Origin: an uncultured delta proteobacterium
GTDB lineage: Bacteria > Myxococcota_A > UBA9160 > SMWR01
Length of the DNA: 64,000 bases
Reading direction: 5' to 3'
Assembly (NCBI GenBank): GCA_963832165.1
Contig: CAWHTE010000007.1
Location: 992,001 to 1,056,000, forward strand
Of the stretch, positions 14,380 through 19,917 are shown one piece after another. The notes beneath the pieces were generated by a model. The model searched no databases. It saw only the letters and a list, made by a program, of their open reading frames with translations, and was not told the origin of the DNA. The translations under genes were made by a program, and so were the position numbers. The first letter of the stretch is position 1. Each line of letters opens with the position of its first letter.

Positions 14380-15330
14380 GTGGCCCCCGGAACCGCTCGC
14401 GGCTTTCCCCGCAGCGCGCGCCGCGTCGCGGCCGTCGCGCTCGGTCTCGCGCTGCTCGGCGCCGACGGTGCCGCACCGAACGCGCCGAGCGCTCCGTCCG
14501 AAGGGGAACGCCCCGCGAGCGGCCGCTTCCTCGTCGCCAGCGAACAGATCCGCGGCTCGGTCTTCCACCATTCGGTGGTGTTTCTGCTCAGCTACGCCGA
14601 GTCCGGTGCGATCGGACTGATCGTCAACCACCCCACCGACCTCGCGCTGAGCGAGGTGGTGCAGGGTGCCGTCGACGGTGCGGGTTGGCTCCACCTCGGC
14701 GGGCCTGTCGAGCTCCCGATGGTGATGGTGCTGCTGCGCGCGCAGTCTCCGCCCAAGCAGGCGATGCACGTCGCGGGCGACGTGTTCGTGACGGTCGATG
14801 CCGCGCTGCTGCTCGAGCAAACCGGAAAACCTGGTAGCACCGGATCGGTGCGCGTGTACGCGGGCTATACGGGCTGGGGACCGGGCCAGCTCGACGCCGA
14901 GATCGCTCGCGGCGACTGGATCGTCGCCGATGCGCCGGTCGAGTCGATCTTCGACGACGCGCCCGAGGCGCTCTGGAAGAAGCTCCATCTGCGCCACCAC
15001 CGGCTGATCGCAGGGCTGTCCGCGGTTCCGGTCCTGCTGCTGCTCGTGATGCTCGGCTGCAGCGGGATCGAGGGGGCGCGCCACTACCGCGAGGGCACGC
15101 AGGCGCTCGAGCGTGGGGACGCGAACAGCGCGGTGCTCGCACTCGAGCGCGCCGCGGAGCGCGTGCCCGAAGCCTCCGAAGTGCAGAACCACCTTGGGCT
15201 CGCCTATCTCGCGTCGGGGCGCCGCGACGAGGCGCTGCGCGCGTTCGAGCGCGCTGTGGCGCTCGACTGCGACAACTCTGCCGCGAGCCGTAACCTCGCT
15301 CTGCTGCGCGGAGATCTGCGCGCGCCGTGA
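14380..15330 (+). CDS. YqgE/AlgH (UPF0301) domain with signal peptide, in frame with a lipoprotein-like TPR module
   Basis: GRFLVA, FHHSVVFL, GLIVNHP, LGGPV, YAGYTGWGPGQLDAEI, then LLLLVMLGC and TPRs (HLGLAYLASGRRDEALRAFERA). Confidence 0.75.
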   Translation: MAPGTARGFPRSARRVAAVALGLALLGADGAAPNAPSAPSEGERPASGRFLVASEQIRGSVFHHSVVFLLSYAESGAIGLIVNHPTDLALSEVVQGAVDGAGWLHLGGPVELPMVMVLLRAQSPPKQAMHVAGDVFVTVDAALLLEQTGKPGSTGSVRVYAGYTGWGPGQLDAEIARGDWIVADAPVESIFDDAPEALWKKLHLRHHRLIAGLSAVPVLLLLVMLGCSGIEGARHYREGTQALERGDANSAVLALERAAERVPEASEVQNHLGLAYLASGRRDEALRAFERAVALDCDNSAASRNLALLRGDLRAP

Positions 15331-15386
15331 TCGCGCTCCGCGGCCGCGATTTGCCGGCGGCGCGTGTGTTCATTACCGTCGGAGAG

Positions 15387-15833
15387 ATGTCACACGAGGT
15401 CGAGCACCGCACGCTCTCCCGCTACCTCGAAGATCACCAGCTCAAGCACACGAAGCAGCGCGAGGCGATCCTCGAGATCTTTCTCGACGTCACGGGACAC
15501 ATCACGGGGGAGGACCTGTATCAGCGGGTGCGCGAGCTGCACCCCCAGATCGGGTACACCACCGTCTACCGGACGATGAAGCTGCTATGCGAGGCCGGGC
15601 TCGCGCACGAGCACAACTTCGATGGCACCACGCGCTACGAGATCGCGCACGAGCACCACGACCACCTGGTGTGCATCCGCTGCGGCAAGATCATCGAATT
15701 CGAGTGCGAGATGATCGAGAAGGCGCAGGAGCAGATCGCCGAGCGCTACGGCTTCCGCGTGCTGCGCCACCGGCACGAGCTCTACGGCCACTGCAGCAAG
15801 TGCCAGAACGAGCCGGGGCGCCGCAGCCTCTAG
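15387..15833 (+). CDS. fur: Fur family metal-responsive transcriptional repressor
   Basis: TKQREAIL, TVYRTMKLLCEAG, HHDHLVCIRCGKIIEF, HELYGHCSKC. Confidence 0.9.
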   Translation: MSHEVEHRTLSRYLEDHQLKHTKQREAILEIFLDVTGHITGEDLYQRVRELHPQIGYTTVYRTMKLLCEAGLAHEHNFDGTTRYEIAHEHHDHLVCIRCGKIIEFECEMIEKAQEQIAERYGFRVLRHRHELYGHCSKCQNEPGRRSL

Positions 15834-15880
15834 GCCGGCCGTCCCCCTTTTTCGCGCGCGGGTCGGGCCCCGAGCCCCGC

Positions 15881-15909
15881 TTGACAGCGGTCAGCGACCG
15901 CCGTAGCGT
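15881..15909 (+). promoter_or_regulatory. sigma70 promoter
   Basis: TTGACA (15881-15886), 17-nt spacer, TAGCGT (15904-15909). Confidence 0.75.
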
Positions 15910-15917
15910 GGCCGCCG

Positions 15918-15940
15918 AAATTGAATGTGATTTTCAATTT
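15918..15940. promoter_or_regulatory. Fur-box-like operator
   Basis: AT-rich palindrome AAATTGAA-TGTGATT-TTCAATTT just after the -10 element, downstream of fur and upstream of a porin operon. Confidence 0.8.
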
Positions 15941-16004
15941 CAGACCCCATGCTCCCACGAGGAGCGGCTTCCGGCGACGCCCGGAAGAGTGCGAAGTGGG
16001 CTGC

Positions 16005-16196
16005 ATGGCCAGAGCGGAGAAGAGCCGGAGCGAGCGGCACGACCCCAACGAGTGCCGCTGCCTGTGCGGCAGCCTCGTCGCTCGCCGCGTACCCACCGGC
16101 GTCGAGCTCAAGTGCCGGCGCTGCAAGCGCACGGTCGTCCTGCCGCTGCTCGATCTCACCCAGCCCACGGTTCAGGCCCGCGAAGCCACTCCGTGA
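16005..16196 (+). CDS. Small zinc-ribbon protein resembling phage Mu Com (translational activator family)
   Basis: CRCLCGSLVARRVPTGVELKCRRCKRTVVL matches the Com pattern RC..C..L....EI[RK]C.RCK. Confidence 0.65.
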   Translation: MARAEKSRSERHDPNECRCLCGSLVARRVPTGVELKCRRCKRTVVLPLLDLTQPTVQAREATP

Positions 16197-16281
16197 GCGT
16201 CTCGATTTCTTCGACCCATCTGCGGCCAGCGGCCATGAGCCCCGAGCCCTGCCGGCTCCATCCGAGCCCGGAGCTCGTCTC

Positions 16282-17622
16282 ATGAAAGCTTCCCGTCTGA
16301 TTCTCCCCACCCTGGCCGCGGCGCTGTTCGCCGCGGCGCCTCTTGCCGCGGCTCCGGCCGACGACGAGCAGATGGCCGGGGACGACCGCGTGTCGGAGCT
16401 CGAGCGCAAGGTCGAGCTGCTCACCGACGAGCTCGCGCGCACGAAGCAGGACATCGGCGTCCCCGAAGAGAAGCCGCTCGAGAGCGTCCACGGGCTCGGG
16501 CCCGGAGCGTCGAAGATCTACAACCTCACGCGGGGTCTCTCGATCGGCGGCTACGCCGAGGGCGGCTACACCGCGGTGGTTCACGACAAGCGGAAGTCCG
16601 GCGACACGAACGGCGCCGACTTCACGCGCGCGGTGCTCTACGCCGGCTACAAGTTCACCGATCGGATCCTGTTCAACTCCGAGATCGAGTTCGAGCACGG
16701 CTCCACCGAGGAGAACGGCAGCGGTGTCGGTCGAGTTCGCCACGCTCGACTTCCTGATCCAGGACGAGGTGAACACGCGCGCGGGGCTCGTGCTGATGCC
16801 GATGGGCTTCCTGAACGAGATTCACGAGCCGCCGTTCTACTACGGAACCCACCGCCCCGACGTGGAGCGCACGATCATTCCGAGCACGTGGCGCGAGGTC
16901 GGCGCCGGACTGTTCGGGCGGATCGCGGACCAGATCGAGTACAAGGTCTATGCGGTGGCGAGCTTGGACGCGACCGGCTTCGACGTCCAGCGGCATCCGC
17001 GGTGGGCGCCAGCAGGGCAGCGAGTCGCTCGCCGAGGATCTCGCCTTCGTCGGGCGGGTCGACTGGGAGCCGATTCCCGAGCTCATGATCGGCGGGTCGG
17101 CCTTCATCGGAAATACCGGGCAGGATCAGTCCTTCGACGTCGATGGGGACGGCTTGACCGACGCAAACCTGCCCGGCGCGACGCTCACGCTCTGGGAAGC
17201 GCACAGCGAGGTCACGACGCACGGGCTGCGCGTGCGCGGGCTGTTCACGATGAGCCATCTGAAGGATGCGGGCTCGCTCACCGGGGACCTGCTCACCACG
17301 GGCGCGCTGGCTGCCGGCGATGCGATCGCCGAGAACACGCTCGGCGGATACGGCGAGGTCGGCTACGAGGTGCTGCAGTGGATCGCGCCCAACAGCGGCT
17401 GGACCGTCGAGCCGTTCGTGCGCGCCGAGTACATCGACACGCAGTACGACATGCCGAGCGGATTCGACGCGAACAAGTCGGAGCAGTTCCAGGTCTACAC
17501 GGTGGGCGTGTCGGCGAAGCCGATTCCCGAACGTGGTGCTGAAGCTCGACTATCGCAATCGCGTGGCCCGGCAGGGACAGCTGGGCGACGAGGTGAACCT
17601 CGGGATAGGAGTTGTCTTCTAG
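16282..17622 (+). CDS. Outer-membrane porin (short-chain/OprO-P-like), interrupted by three +1 frameshifts
   Basis: Signal peptide and coiled coil, SIGGYAE, YAGYKFTDRILFNSEIEFEH, VEFATLDF, HEPPFYYG, IIPSTWRE, C-terminal NLGIGVVF. Frame changes near 16720, 16985 and 17527. Confidence 0.8.
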
Positions 17623-18168
17623 CTGCCGTCCGAGCAATCGGCATCTCGATCTTCGCGGCGCTGTGCCTGACCTCGGGCACCGCGCACGCGAAGGTCTTCT
17701 TGAGCCGCAGCGAGGCGCTCGCACTGGCCTTTCCCGATGCCGACCGCATCGAGGACGAGTCGATCCTGCTCGGCGACGAGCAGGCGGGCCAGATCGAACG
17801 GCTCGCGAAGAGCCGCCTCGAGTCGCGGCTCGTGCGCATCCACCGCGGCTACCGCCAGAACGAGCTTCTGGGCTACGCGATCATCGACGTGCACAACGTG
17901 CGCACGCTGCCCGAGGCATTCCTCGTGGTGCTCTCGCCCGAAGGTGCCGTGCGCAATGCTGCGCGTGCTCGCATTCCACGAGCCGCTCGAGTACATGCCT
18001 CCCGCGCGCTGGTATCAGCAGTTCGAAGGCAAGACCCTCGCTGCCCCGCTGCGGCTCGGAGGTGACATCCATGCCATCGTGGGTGCCACGCTCTCGTCGC
18101 GCGCCACGACCGAAGGCGTGCGCCGCGCGCTTGCGCTGTATCAGGTCGTGATCGCCAACCGAAAGTAG
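17612..18168 (+). CDS. Secreted FMN-binding domain protein (flavinylation substrate), frameshifted near 17955
   Basis: Signal peptide, EALALAFPDA, VRTLPE, VLAFHEPLEY, WYQQFEGK, IHAIVGATLSS (variant of [S/T]GA[S/T]). Start uncertain. Confidence 0.7.
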
Positions 18169-18175
18169 GCCCACC

Positions 18176-18712
18176 GTGCGCTTCGTGATCACCGGAGAGT
18201 GGAACCGCAATCGCCTGCTCCAGACGATCGTGGTCCTGTACAGCGTCTACGTCGCGGGCCTCTGGCTCACGAACGCGCTGCTCTATTTCTCGAAGATGGG
18301 CCTCACCCCGGCCTCCGTGATCAGCTACTACCGCGGGAACGAGGAGCTCTTCCTCTCGCCGCGCAGCTATCAGGGCATGCTCGAGGTGGCGCACTTCCAC
18401 CTGTTCGCCATGGGCATGTTGCTGCTCGTGCTCACGCATCTGATGCTGTTCGTTCCGCTCAAGAACGGCACGAAGGCGTGGCTGATCGCGCTGCCATTCG
18501 TGGCCGCCGCGCTCGACGAGGGAGGCGGCTGGCTCGTGCGCTTCGGGCACCCTGCGTTCGCCTCGCTCAAGATCGCGGGCTTCCTGCTGCTGCAGGGGAG
18601 CCTCGCGGCACTGATCGGGCTGTCGCTGTGGTCGGTGTTCGCGGGCTCGCAGGCGGAGAACTACACGGGCGAGCTCGGCGATCTCTCGGATCTGGACGAC
18701 ATGCCGCAATGA
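18176..18712 (+). CDS. Integral membrane protein (~4 TM) with His residues in TM segments
   Basis: Hydrophobic helices, YYRG, LEVAHFHLFAMG, LTHL. Translationally coupled to apbE. Confidence 0.7.
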   Translation: MRFVITGEWNRNRLLQTIVVLYSVYVAGLWLTNALLYFSKMGLTPASVISYYRGNEELFLSPRSYQGMLEVAHFHLFAMGMLLLVLTHLMLFVPLKNGTKAWLIALPFVAAALDEGGGWLVRFGHPAFASLKIAGFLLLQGSLAALIGLSLWSVFAGSQAENYTGELGDLSDLDDMPQ

Positions 18713-19917
18713 TCCGGTTGCTCGCGCTCGGCGGGGTGATCGCCGCGCTCGGCTGCGCGAGCGGGCACGCGTCCCGGGAGGTCTCCACGGGGCGTTATGC
18801 GATGGGAACGGTGCTTGAGCTGATCCTCGTCGGGCCGGACGAAGCGACGCTCGAGCGCTCGCGCTCGGATGCGCTCGCCGAGGTGGAGCGCCTCGAGGGG
18901 TTGCTCTCGACGTGGCGCGCCGAGAGCGACGTCTCCCGCCTGAACCAGGCCGCGGGCCGCGGCGCGATCGAGGTCGACCCGGACGTCGCGGCGCTGCTCG
19001 CGCGCTCGGTCGAGCTCGCACACGCCACGCGCGGGACGTTCGATGTCACGGTCGGACCGCTCGTGGCGCTGTGGCGCGAGGCCGCCGAGCGCGATGCGCT
19101 CCCCGATCCCTCCGCGCTCGAGTCCGCGCGCGCGCGCGTGGGAGCGGATCGGCTCGCGGTGCAGCGCGGCGCTGGGAGTGCGAGCGCCGCGCTCGCGCCC
19201 GGCAGCGCGGTGGAGCTCGGCGGCGTGGCGAAGGGTTATGCGCTCGACCGCGCGCGCGCGGTGCTCGGCGCCGGTGTCGATGCGGCGCTGTTGAGCTTCG
19301 GCCAGAGCAGCACGTGGGCGATCGGGCGCCCGCCCGACGCCGCGGGCTGGCGCCTGCTCGCGCGCGGGCCCGACGGCGGATTCGCGGGCATCCTCACGCT
19401 GCGCGATCGCGCGCTCTCGGTCTCGGGAACGTTCGGGCAGGCGAGCGAGATCGGCGGACGGCGCTATGGGCACGTGCTCGATCCGCGCAGCGGCGAGCCG
19501 CTCACGCGCAGCCGCGAGGCGCTCGTGGTCGCGACCGACGCCACGCTCGCGGAGGCGCTCTCGAAGGCGCTGCTCGTGCTCGGTCCGAGCGAGGGCATCG
19601 CGCTGATCGAGGACTGGCCCGGGGCCGAGGCGCTGCTGCTCGACGCAGACGGAAGCGCCTGGCAGACGCGCGGTTGGCAGCAGGAGACGCGCTTCGAGCC
19701 GATCCCCGCCGAGCCCGTCTCAAGCGCCCCGCGCAATGTTCCGATTCAAGAGGGCATGGCTCAGCAGGAACTCACCTGTCCGGTCTGCCAGGCGGATATG
19801 CCGCTCGGCGGCGACGAGCGCCCCGGGGACGAGTTCTACTGCTCGTGCTGCGGTGCTCCGGGCATCATTGCCAAGAAGGACAAGAGCGAGGAGCTGGAAG
19901 TCGAAGAGGACTTCTAG
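18709..19917 (+). CDS. apbE: FAD:protein FMN transferase lipoprotein; the ORF reads through into a C-terminal zinc ribbon
   Basis: Lipobox ALGC, AMGT, SDVSRLN, FDVTVGPLVALW, LGGVAKGY, YGHVLDPRSG, AEALSKAL. Confidence 0.9.
   Translation: MIRLLALGGVIAALGCASGHASREVSTGRYAMGTVLELILVGPDEATLERSRSDALAEVERLEGLLSTWRAESDVSRLNQAAGRGAIEVDPDVAALLARSVELAHATRGTFDVTVGPLVALWREAAERDALPDPSALESARARVGADRLAVQRGAGSASAALAPGSAVELGGVAKGYALDRARAVLGAGVDAALLSFGQSSTWAIGRPPDAAGWRLLARGPDGGFAGILTLRDRALSVSGTFGQASEIGGRRYGHVLDPRSGEPLTRSREALVVATDATLAEALSKALLVLGPSEGIALIEDWPGAEALLLDADGSAWQTRGWQQETRFEPIPAEPVSSAPRNVPIQEGMAQQELTCPVCQADMPLGGDERPGDEFYCSCCGAPGIIAKKDKSEELEVEEDF
19756..19917 (+). CDS. Small acidic CxxC...CxxC zinc ribbon (LysW/rubredoxin-like fold), possibly translated separately
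   Basis: MAQQELTCPVCQAD...GDEFYCSCCGAP...EELEVEEDF with a GAGGG RBS, in frame with apbE. Confidence 0.6.
   Translation: MAQQELTCPVCQADMPLGGDERPGDEFYCSCCGAPGIIAKKDKSEELEVEEDF

Follow-up and report, generated by a model that had tools for sequence, protein, structure and literature searches.

We analysed a 64-kb window (64,000 nucleotides, contig CAWHTE010000007.1) from the genome of an uncultured delta proteobacterium, in which a Fur-family regulator gene is followed by promoter-like hexamers, a Fur-box-like inverted repeat, a small cysteine-rich zinc-ribbon open reading frame (ORF) whose product resembles the Com protein of phage Mu, an 85-nucleotide spacer and a porin-like gene (Table 1). 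The subject of this study is the spacer, which holds a conserved bipartite motif, is predicted to fold over the Shine-Dalgarno sequence (SD) and start codon of the porin gene, and may be a leader RNA bound by the Com-like protein.

Table 1. Coordinates of the genes and sequence features discussed, numbered from the first nucleotide of the window (MFE, minimum free energy).
Feature	Position	Strand	Basis
Fur-family regulator gene	15327..15833	+	Pfam FUR, E 1.1e-35
Promoter-like hexamers TTGACA (15881-86) and TAGCGT (15904-09), 17-nt spacer	15881..15909	+	read from sequence
Fur-box-like inverted repeat GAAATTGAATGTGATTTTCAATTTC	15917..15941	.	read from sequence
Com-like Cys-rich zinc-ribbon ORF, 63 aa	16005..16196	+	translation; stop TGA 16194-16196
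Spacer, 85 nt, between zinc-ribbon stop and porin ATG (16282-16284)		+
Conserved bipartite motif, putative RNA element	16219..16249	+	R1 match, 33.8 bits, E 2.3e-7
Half-site 1, GGCCAGCGG	16224..16232	+	alignment A1
Half-site 2, CCCCGAGCCC	16240..16249	+	alignment A1
P1 5' arm, CGAGC-C-CUG, overlaps half-site 2	16243..16251	+	MFE fold
P2, apical hairpin, GGCUC / loop CAUCC / GAGCC	16254..16268	+	144/147 suboptimal folds
P1 3' arm, CGG-A-GCUCG, holds SD GGAG (16270-16273)	16269..16277	+	MFE fold
Porin-like gene, ATG 16282	16282..17622	+	homologs; weak Autotransporter beta-domain match

A conserved motif linked to the zinc-ribbon gene

The spacer was singled out in an earlier note on this DNA as a leader rich in GAGCC-type repeats. 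The sequence was read accurately there: GAGCCC lies at 16237, 16244 and 16264, GAGCGT at 16195 and GAGCTC at 16271, GGCTCC (16254-16259) and GGAGC (16270-16274) are in place, and the spacer is 85 nucleotides long. In the window as a whole GAGCC occurs 315 times against 315.3 expected. The four GAGCC/GGCTC sites within 36 nucleotides form the only such cluster in the 64 kb, and uniform random placement yields one in 243 of 2000 trials, so the cluster alone is not significant; judged on the window alone, the note's own caution about chance pairing in GC-rich DNA was justified.

What makes the spacer element real, unlike the repeat cluster alone, is comparison across genomes. Of 61 related genomes, 50 have a porin homolog, and in 19 of the 30 loci taken from these the zinc-ribbon gene lies upstream of the porin gene (by tblastn). 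A bipartite motif, scored with a sequence-only model (R1), is present in exactly those 19 loci, on the + strand only and between the zinc-ribbon ORF and the porin gene. The 11 loci that lack the zinc-ribbon gene have no motif (best score 6.1 bits with filters off; L021 has only 75 nucleotides upstream) and carry the Fur-box-like repeat directly 5' of the porin gene. The consensus in the porin loci is GGCCAG(C/A)G(G/A)-N7-8-(C/U)CC(C/A)G(A/C)G(C/U)CC, with 15 invariant columns in the motif alignment (A1), and the window motif follows its short form, GGCCAG(C/A)GG-N7-CCCCGAGCCC, in which CCCCGAGCCC is preceded by CCAUGAGCC. The final GAG of the core is GCG in five of 36 Myxococcota-type leaders (six of 68 unique leaders). 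R1 finds one strong match in this genome (33.8 bits, the next best being 15.5), which makes the element single copy. When the repeats are set against the motif, only those at 16237 and 16244 fall within what other genomes keep; those at 16195 and 16271 are not kept as repeats, and that at 16264 forms the 3' strand of an apical stem particular to the genus. Conservation in homologous loci, whose lack the earlier note had named as telling against its idea, is found for the 16237/16244 block.

When 151 genomes of the class were scanned for the motif, 39 had a match at E ≤ 0.01; the 30 best included 18 new loci, 17 of them with the zinc-ribbon gene upstream and a porin gene downstream and one (L062) with neither. 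In a protein-first scan, an alignment of 36 zinc-ribbon cores (A2) was searched against one genome per prokaryote species and gave 250 loci, the best 80 of which were kept. An R1 match at E < 0.01 is present in 52 of these 80, about 20-300 nucleotides 3' of the zinc-ribbon gene, and all 68 R1 matches reported for the protein-selected loci are on the strand of that gene. The taxa that appear in the record titles of the 80 are Myxococcota, Deltaproteobacteria, Binatia, Rokubacteria, Acidobacteriota, Nitrospirota, Sorangium, Haliangium and Vulgatibacter. In L084, L112, L125, L126, L127 and L139 the motif takes a divergent form, GCGGCCCG(A/C)GG...CCAG(A/C)GCCC (GCGGCCCG...CCAGCGCCC), 5' of genes for TonB-dependent receptors or DUF6662 barrels; R1 scores it weakly, and the family is therefore wider than the R1 model.

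Two candidate explanations of the conserved block were rejected. A translated extension or small ORF does not account for it, since the block stands in differing frames relative to both neighbour genes across loci (the zinc-ribbon ORF reads through the motif in 11 of 36 loci), and a 4-bp GGCC/GGUC mini-hairpin in half-site 1 is broken by GACC variants. As a separate observation, eight Binatia loci (L119, L124, L135, L138 and L141-L144) carry zinc-ribbon relatives of 55-60% identity in which the gene is followed by a convergent terminator-like hairpin in place of the motif; all of them except L119 and L135, thus six of the eight, have weak R1 matches (12-15 bits) about 1.2 kb further downstream.

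Predicted hairpins over start codons and in terminators

The MFE structure of the window leader (-38.5 kcal/mol) takes the form of a single long, imperfect hairpin. CGAGC (16243-47) is predicted to pair with GCUCG (16273-77) and CUG with CGG, forming stem P1 below the apical hairpin P2, and CAUGAG (16234-39) with CUCAUG (16279-84), which buries the porin AUG; the predicted paired probability is 0.8 for the SD and 1.0 for the AUG. This modelled fold hiding SD and AUG, together with the strict co-occurrence of motif and gene and the GAG..CC core, supports the earlier note's suggestion that the spacer is the probable target of the Com-like protein over the ribosome-binding site.

The switch proposed in the same note fared differently. 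GGCUCC (16254-59) was there taken to alternate between the SD region GGAGC (16270-74) and the upstream GAGCC (16244-48), as an anti-SD/anti-anti-SD device. The required complementarities are present in the spacer, all of the genus-group leaders L001, L002, L004 and L006 retain GGCUC in the apical 5' arm, and three of these four retain the upstream GAGCC (L004 has GCGCC there). Energetically, however, both pairings are disfavoured: forcing GCUCC:GGAGC gives -27.1 kcal/mol, a cost of +11.4 over the MFE, and forcing GAGCC(16244):GGCUC gives -31.7 kcal/mol, a cost of +6.8. Neither pairing is found in any of the 147 suboptimal folds within 3 kcal/mol, 144 of which hold GGCUC(16254-58):GAGCC(16264-68). 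Since apical stem sequences are unrelated outside the genus, the three-way complementarity is not conserved, and we consider such a switch highly improbable. What relatives do keep is a bipartite motif that looks single-stranded, its 3' half (CGAGCCC) making up the base of a single long hairpin.

In relatives, a hairpin follows the motif in the same place in 36 GC-rich leaders, with unrelated stem sequences, and typically lies between the CCC(C) of the motif and the G-rich SD. The segment from the end of the motif to AUG-3 folds better than dinucleotide shuffles (mean z -2.25, with 26 of the 36 leaders below -1.64). In GC-rich Myxococcota-type leaders the 3' half of the motif (CGAGCCC) is the 5' strand of the hairpin, which covers SD and AUG, and the complement GG(G/A)CUCG stands directly before the AUG or, as AUGGCUCG, directly after it. 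Predicted pairing of positions -14..+3 averages 0.64 in 36 leaders with the zinc-ribbon gene and 0.54 in seven without it, a difference whose p of 0.012 is overstated, the loci being kin.

A second arrangement is found in 17 low-GC leaders, where (A/C/G)GAGCCCGG of the motif pairs as the 5' strand with CCGGGCUCU, and a U-run, the SD and the ATG come after the stem. RNAalifold on these leaders returns AGAGCCCGG:CCGGGCUCU and then the U-run, and the CGAGCCC/AGAGCCC block is the 5' arm of an intrinsic terminator, which stands 5' of ExbBD, TonB-receptor, porin or cupredoxin genes. This feature is absent in the window itself, where the stem ends at SD and AUG instead. A perfect 7/7 P1 complement is present in 18 of 68 unique leaders, and among those from low-GC U-tract leaders permuted arms match as well in at most 7%, except in L077 (12%); compensated P1 variants are seen in L045 (CGCGCCC:GGGCGCG) and L064 (AGAGCC:GGCUCU). 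A structured model built from the 17 low-GC leaders (R2) and run over 76 loci (the 36, and 40 of the 80) gave 71 matches, among them the window leader (16221-16284, 20.3 bits, E 0.0016), whose row (L001:1440-1503) forms eight of nine P1 pairs. In the R2-fitted alignment 92% of cells pair, compared with 82.2% when shuffled (0 of 500 shuffles reach 92%) and 30-54% when slid; P1 is closed by A-U in 31 rows and by C-G in 18.

Both arrangements bear on whether the leader needs the protein at all. A terminator in low-GC taxa and sequestration of the ribosome-binding site in high-GC taxa are the two platforms typical of riboswitches, several leader copies can occur in one iron-uptake cluster, and no Rfam family matches (at E ≤ 1 in 10 low-GC loci, or at E ≤ 10 in 16197-16284 with the Rfam 15 covariance models), so that the leader could be an undescribed RNA class: a protein-independent attenuator or riboswitch sensing a metabolite, a metal or another factor, with the zinc-ribbon gene co-inherited as part of a cassette. 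We think this quite unlikely, because the conserved part spans only about 30 nucleotides with no conserved internal helix, unlike ligand-binding aptamers, because presence and absence of the leader motif are strictly linked to the protein gene, and because the leader core matches the RNA motif selected by Com (Nowacka et al. 2019, PMC6483171).

A further observation concerns transcription of the leader. In L131, L121, L136 and L082 the DNA between the zinc-ribbon gene and the motif contains AT-rich, promoter-like hexamers (TTGACA..TATAC), separated by an AT-rich repeat and ending a few bases before the motif; with hexamers so placed the leader would start its own iron-regulated transcript and would not be co-transcribed with the zinc-ribbon gene.

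The motif might alternatively be a DNA operator and the zinc-ribbon protein a DNA-binding transcription factor. Two direct half-sites at fixed spacing would suit an operator, as would the position of the motif a few bases 3' of promoter-like TTGACA..TATAC hexamers in some low-GC loci, and the NCBI name of the Com family is itself 'DNA-binding transcriptional regulator'. An operator is nonetheless very unlikely in our view: the motif is on the coding strand in 68 of 68 R1 matches; half-site 2 without exception forms the 5' strand of an RNA stem that has a U-tract or start codon to its 3' side, and the closing pair of this stem switches from A-U to C-G; the motif lies inside the zinc-ribbon ORF, where no promoter is needed, in 11 of 36 loci; and Com itself binds RNA (PMC6483171).

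The Com-like protein and its possible action

The zinc-ribbon protein has the core ..CRCxCGSLLARxVxxGVELKCRRCKR.., in which R12, C13, C15, G16, L18, V27, C31, R32, C34, K35 and R36 are invariant in 36 relatives, including the four cysteine ligands (C13, C15, C31 and C34) in two knuckles. By BLASTP the window protein matches Mu Com with E 3e-4 over 14 residues of the second knuckle (VELKCRRCKRTVVL and IEIRCPRCKRHIIM, respectively), and hhalign of the 36 cores with Mu Com gives a probability of 88.9% and E 2.4e-6 over 26 columns with the cysteine ligands aligned, the third cysteine and the CRRC knuckle falling on C9, C26 and C29 of Mu Com. Six of the 80 relatives carry the JGI label 'phage FluMu protein Com'. 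The window protein matched no Pfam or NCBIfam family, and a profile search of PDB sequences with the zinc-ribbon family gave no match at E ≤ 10. An AlphaFold2 model of the 48-residue core has three strands and a predicted local distance difference test score of 76, and its search against BFVD returned nothing at E ≤ 0.001 and generic zinc ribbons only, which speaks neither for nor against Com.

Mu Com is an RNA-binding activator of mom translation (PMC6483171). The core selected by systematic evolution of ligands by exponential enrichment (SELEX) is mostly bipartite, GAG(N)2CC, the recognised motif is proposed to be CC(N)2-3GAG within a hairpin context, and the Mu Com site adjoins and overlaps the translation-inhibition stem (Nowacka et al. 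2019, PMC6483171). This SELEX core agrees with the GAG..CC-type preference of Com given in the earlier note. By the same yardstick CCCCGAGCCCC fits both the GAG(N)2CC and the CC(N)2-3GAG form, and the window motif holds a CC-N2-GAG-N2-CC core; two half-sites and an overlap with the 5' arm of a stem match the picture drawn by Nowacka et al. (PMC6483171). The likeness extends to the protein, which has 63 residues here and about 62 in Mu Com, with four cysteine ligands in each, to the position of the regulator gene directly 5' of its target and often overlapping it, to a bipartite RNA site with a CC-N2-3-GAG / GAG-N2-CC core, and to a site that adjoins and overlaps a stem hiding SD and start codon, which is a prediction here (PMC6483171). 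Mu com overlaps mom by 50 nucleotides; in 10 of 36 relatives the zinc-ribbon ORF extends beyond the start codon of the porin gene, in L019 it ends one nucleotide short of that codon, and in the window its stop lies 85 nucleotides before the porin ATG. In contrast to Com/mom, the system described here is chromosomal and not carried by a phage, is associated with Fur and iron-uptake genes (porin, ExbBD, TonB-dependent receptors) and not with a DNA-modification gene, has several cis copies per cluster and a terminator platform in low-GC taxa, and has a protein whose first knuckle is CxC and which falls under the Pfam Com threshold. We place the pair with the Com/mom kind and not as a proven member of that family.

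Two further systems offer comparison. In antitermination of the BglG/SacY-RAT type the protein binding site overlaps the 5' arm of the terminator; the low-GC leaders likewise have a short conserved RNA site on the 5' strand of an intrinsic terminator, which a bound protein would exclude, whereas the protein here is unrelated, a small zinc ribbon without CAT or PRD domains, and the site has no conserved stem of its own. HmuP/HemP small proteins act through conserved motifs in the 5' untranslated regions of haem-receptor genes in rhizobia and Burkholderia. There, as would hold for the present system, a TonB-dependent gene for iron uptake is controlled, below the main iron regulator, by a small protein together with a conserved motif in the leader. 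By description their leader motifs differ from ours, and HmuP is not known to have a Cys4 zinc ribbon.

The reading that we narrowly favour is that the Com-like protein binds the leader motif and likely prevents formation of the hairpin that covers SD and AUG, the porin then being translated. Transcription of the operon would be gated by the Fur-box-like repeat. The Com-like protein would be made first, from the same transcript as the porin, and would bind the bipartite motif in the spacer; binding would keep P1 from forming and leave SD and AUG open for porin translation. The Com-like tier would then be a second control on the iron-uptake operon, working as a threshold or a delay. As for the first step, NCBIfam Fur/PerR/Zur models match the product of the Fur-family gene, each under its own cut-off, the gene adjoins the porin locus in 20 of the 30 porin loci, and inverted repeats near-identical to that of the window lie 5' of the porin or zinc-ribbon gene in relatives; Fur would be expected to bind the window repeat, to judge from its sequence. 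The hexamers 5' of the repeat are a candidate promoter. The TTGACA..TAG... arrangement also stands 5' of the inverted repeat in loci that lack the zinc-ribbon gene, and a consensus promoter/terminator scan of 15800-16400 gave no promoter at threshold and no terminator-like site.

The linkage of motif and gene is strict, the site is on the same strand and 5' of the regulated gene, it is single copy in this genome, and the hairpin that follows varies in sequence. By analogy with Com, the element probably acts as RNA and the zinc-ribbon protein probably binds it.

Several results weigh against activation by hairpin opening or against parts of it. About 16 of the 80 protein-selected loci have no recognisable motif, including a Binatia subgroup and Sorangium L078. 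On the protein side, none of the 36 members matches the Pfam Com family at E ≤ 1, the PHROG gpCom match has E 0.11, and the first knuckle is CxC, not CxxC. On the RNA side, the z-score of the window leader is modest (-1.72 for a 111-nucleotide fold); when the motif is forced single-stranded in silico the SD is not freed, the probability of its being paired rising from 0.8 to 0.99, and the AUG alone opens (1.0 to 0.42). Among leaders with CGCGCC in place of CGAGCC, L045 has the compensating change, and L004, L005, L007 and L051 keep a P1 mismatch. By a duplex-energy test P1 in GC-rich leaders is indistinguishable from chance (mean z -0.61, five of 36 below -1.64), and permuted arms do equally well in most GC-rich rows; both tests are without power because the DNA is 70% GC. 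The R2 alignment (A4) is fitted to its model, and 14 of its rows are mirror-image minus-strand matches of palindromic terminator stems. Lastly, that binding would open the helix and not stabilise it, and hence the direction of regulation, is pure analogy.

On this last point the opposite direction has to be considered, namely that the protein binds the same motif but represses, or regulates its own synthesis, by making the hairpin or terminator more stable. All findings on linkage and structure are equally compatible with repression, half-site 2 sits inside the P1 stem, Com recognises its motif in a hairpin context (Nowacka et al., PMC6483171), and blocking the motif in silico leaves the window SD paired. 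Repression is nevertheless unlikely: Mu Com, the sole characterised relative, activates (PMC6483171), and a repressor encoded before its target on one transcript and behind a Fur-box-like operator, as in the Myxococcota operons, would presumably cancel most of the induction.

Downstream genes and the meaning for iron uptake

At non-porin loci the genes downstream of the leader code for ExbB/ExbD (nine loci), TonB-dependent receptors (five), DUF6662 barrels (three) and Cupredoxin_1 proteins (two); others at this position encode Porin_O_P or BBP2 porins, a di-haem peroxidase and a pyridoxal phosphate-dependent (PLP) decarboxylase. Five low-GC genomes have two or three leader copies each, on one contig and strand and spread over about 0.4-14 kb, and in the two clusters that were mapped the copies stand 5' of separate ExbB-ExbD-TonB-receptor and DUF4198-like-receptor-PepSY units. 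That several cis copies go with a single regulator gene implies that the factor acts in trans. We also observed that in the low-GC clusters (L159:2362-11008 and L160:2435-9553) a small ORF comes first after each leader copy, followed by the ExbB or receptor genes; these small ORFs are of three unannotated kinds, for example starting MKKNRRWEIALCERGTVHLHY.., MVFHPWIEKAWQMHRQTECFPNV.. and MPAVGKHRVLGQLESENVEERIEV.., and matched no family in a Pfam search.

The region 3' of the porin gene in the window (17676-19917) holds an FMN_bind-domain gene, a gene for a 178-residue membrane protein without a family, ApbE (FAD:protein FMN transferase, E 7e-59) and a LysW-like zinc ribbon of 53 residues, a homolog of which directly follows the Com-like gene in L134. 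This gene set resembles a flavinylated extracytoplasmic redox module and is plausibly a ferric reductase. The porin gene shows three frame breaks (near 16709-16722, 16983 and 17524) and is colinear with the intact 446-residue ortholog of L002 through frames 1>2>3>1, and the FMN-binding-domain gene (17676-18168) has one frame change near 17960. These breaks could be assembly indels or real pseudogenes; the genome is in 11 contigs. A look-up of sequencing runs gave no RNA run that contains this stretch and no DNA run with more than 0.12 of its words.

A full-text literature search, with subscription journals outside its coverage, returned only the work on Mu Com and no chromosomal Com-like regulator of iron uptake. 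We tentatively suggest, as a possibility held with some doubt, that the Com-like protein and its bipartite leader are a widespread and undescribed post-transcriptional regulon that gates iron uptake downstream of Fur, through a terminator in low-GC taxa or sequestration of the ribosome-binding site in high-GC taxa. Such a regulon would extend over Myxococcota, Binatia and genomes labelled Methylomirabilota, Acidobacteriota and Desulfobacterota, its targets would be porins, ExbB-ExbD-TonB, TonB-dependent receptors and cupredoxin proteins, and its Cys4 site may report metal status.

Com has so far been a one-gene phage curiosity, and here a protein-RNA pair of that kind would serve the cell as a regulator, with a multi-copy cis element of its own and two interchangeable expression platforms, added to the control that Fur exerts on genes for outer-membrane and TonB-dependent uptake in several phyla that have been little studied. 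It is apparently an undescribed layer of control on iron-uptake genes. If true, the pair would bring a class of protein-dependent leader RNA that is new and missing from Rfam, and a second regulatory tier on iron acquisition; at about 60 residues and about 30 nucleotides it would be compact, testable and reusable, and its cis element would provide a handle for regulon prediction in metagenome-assembled genomes.

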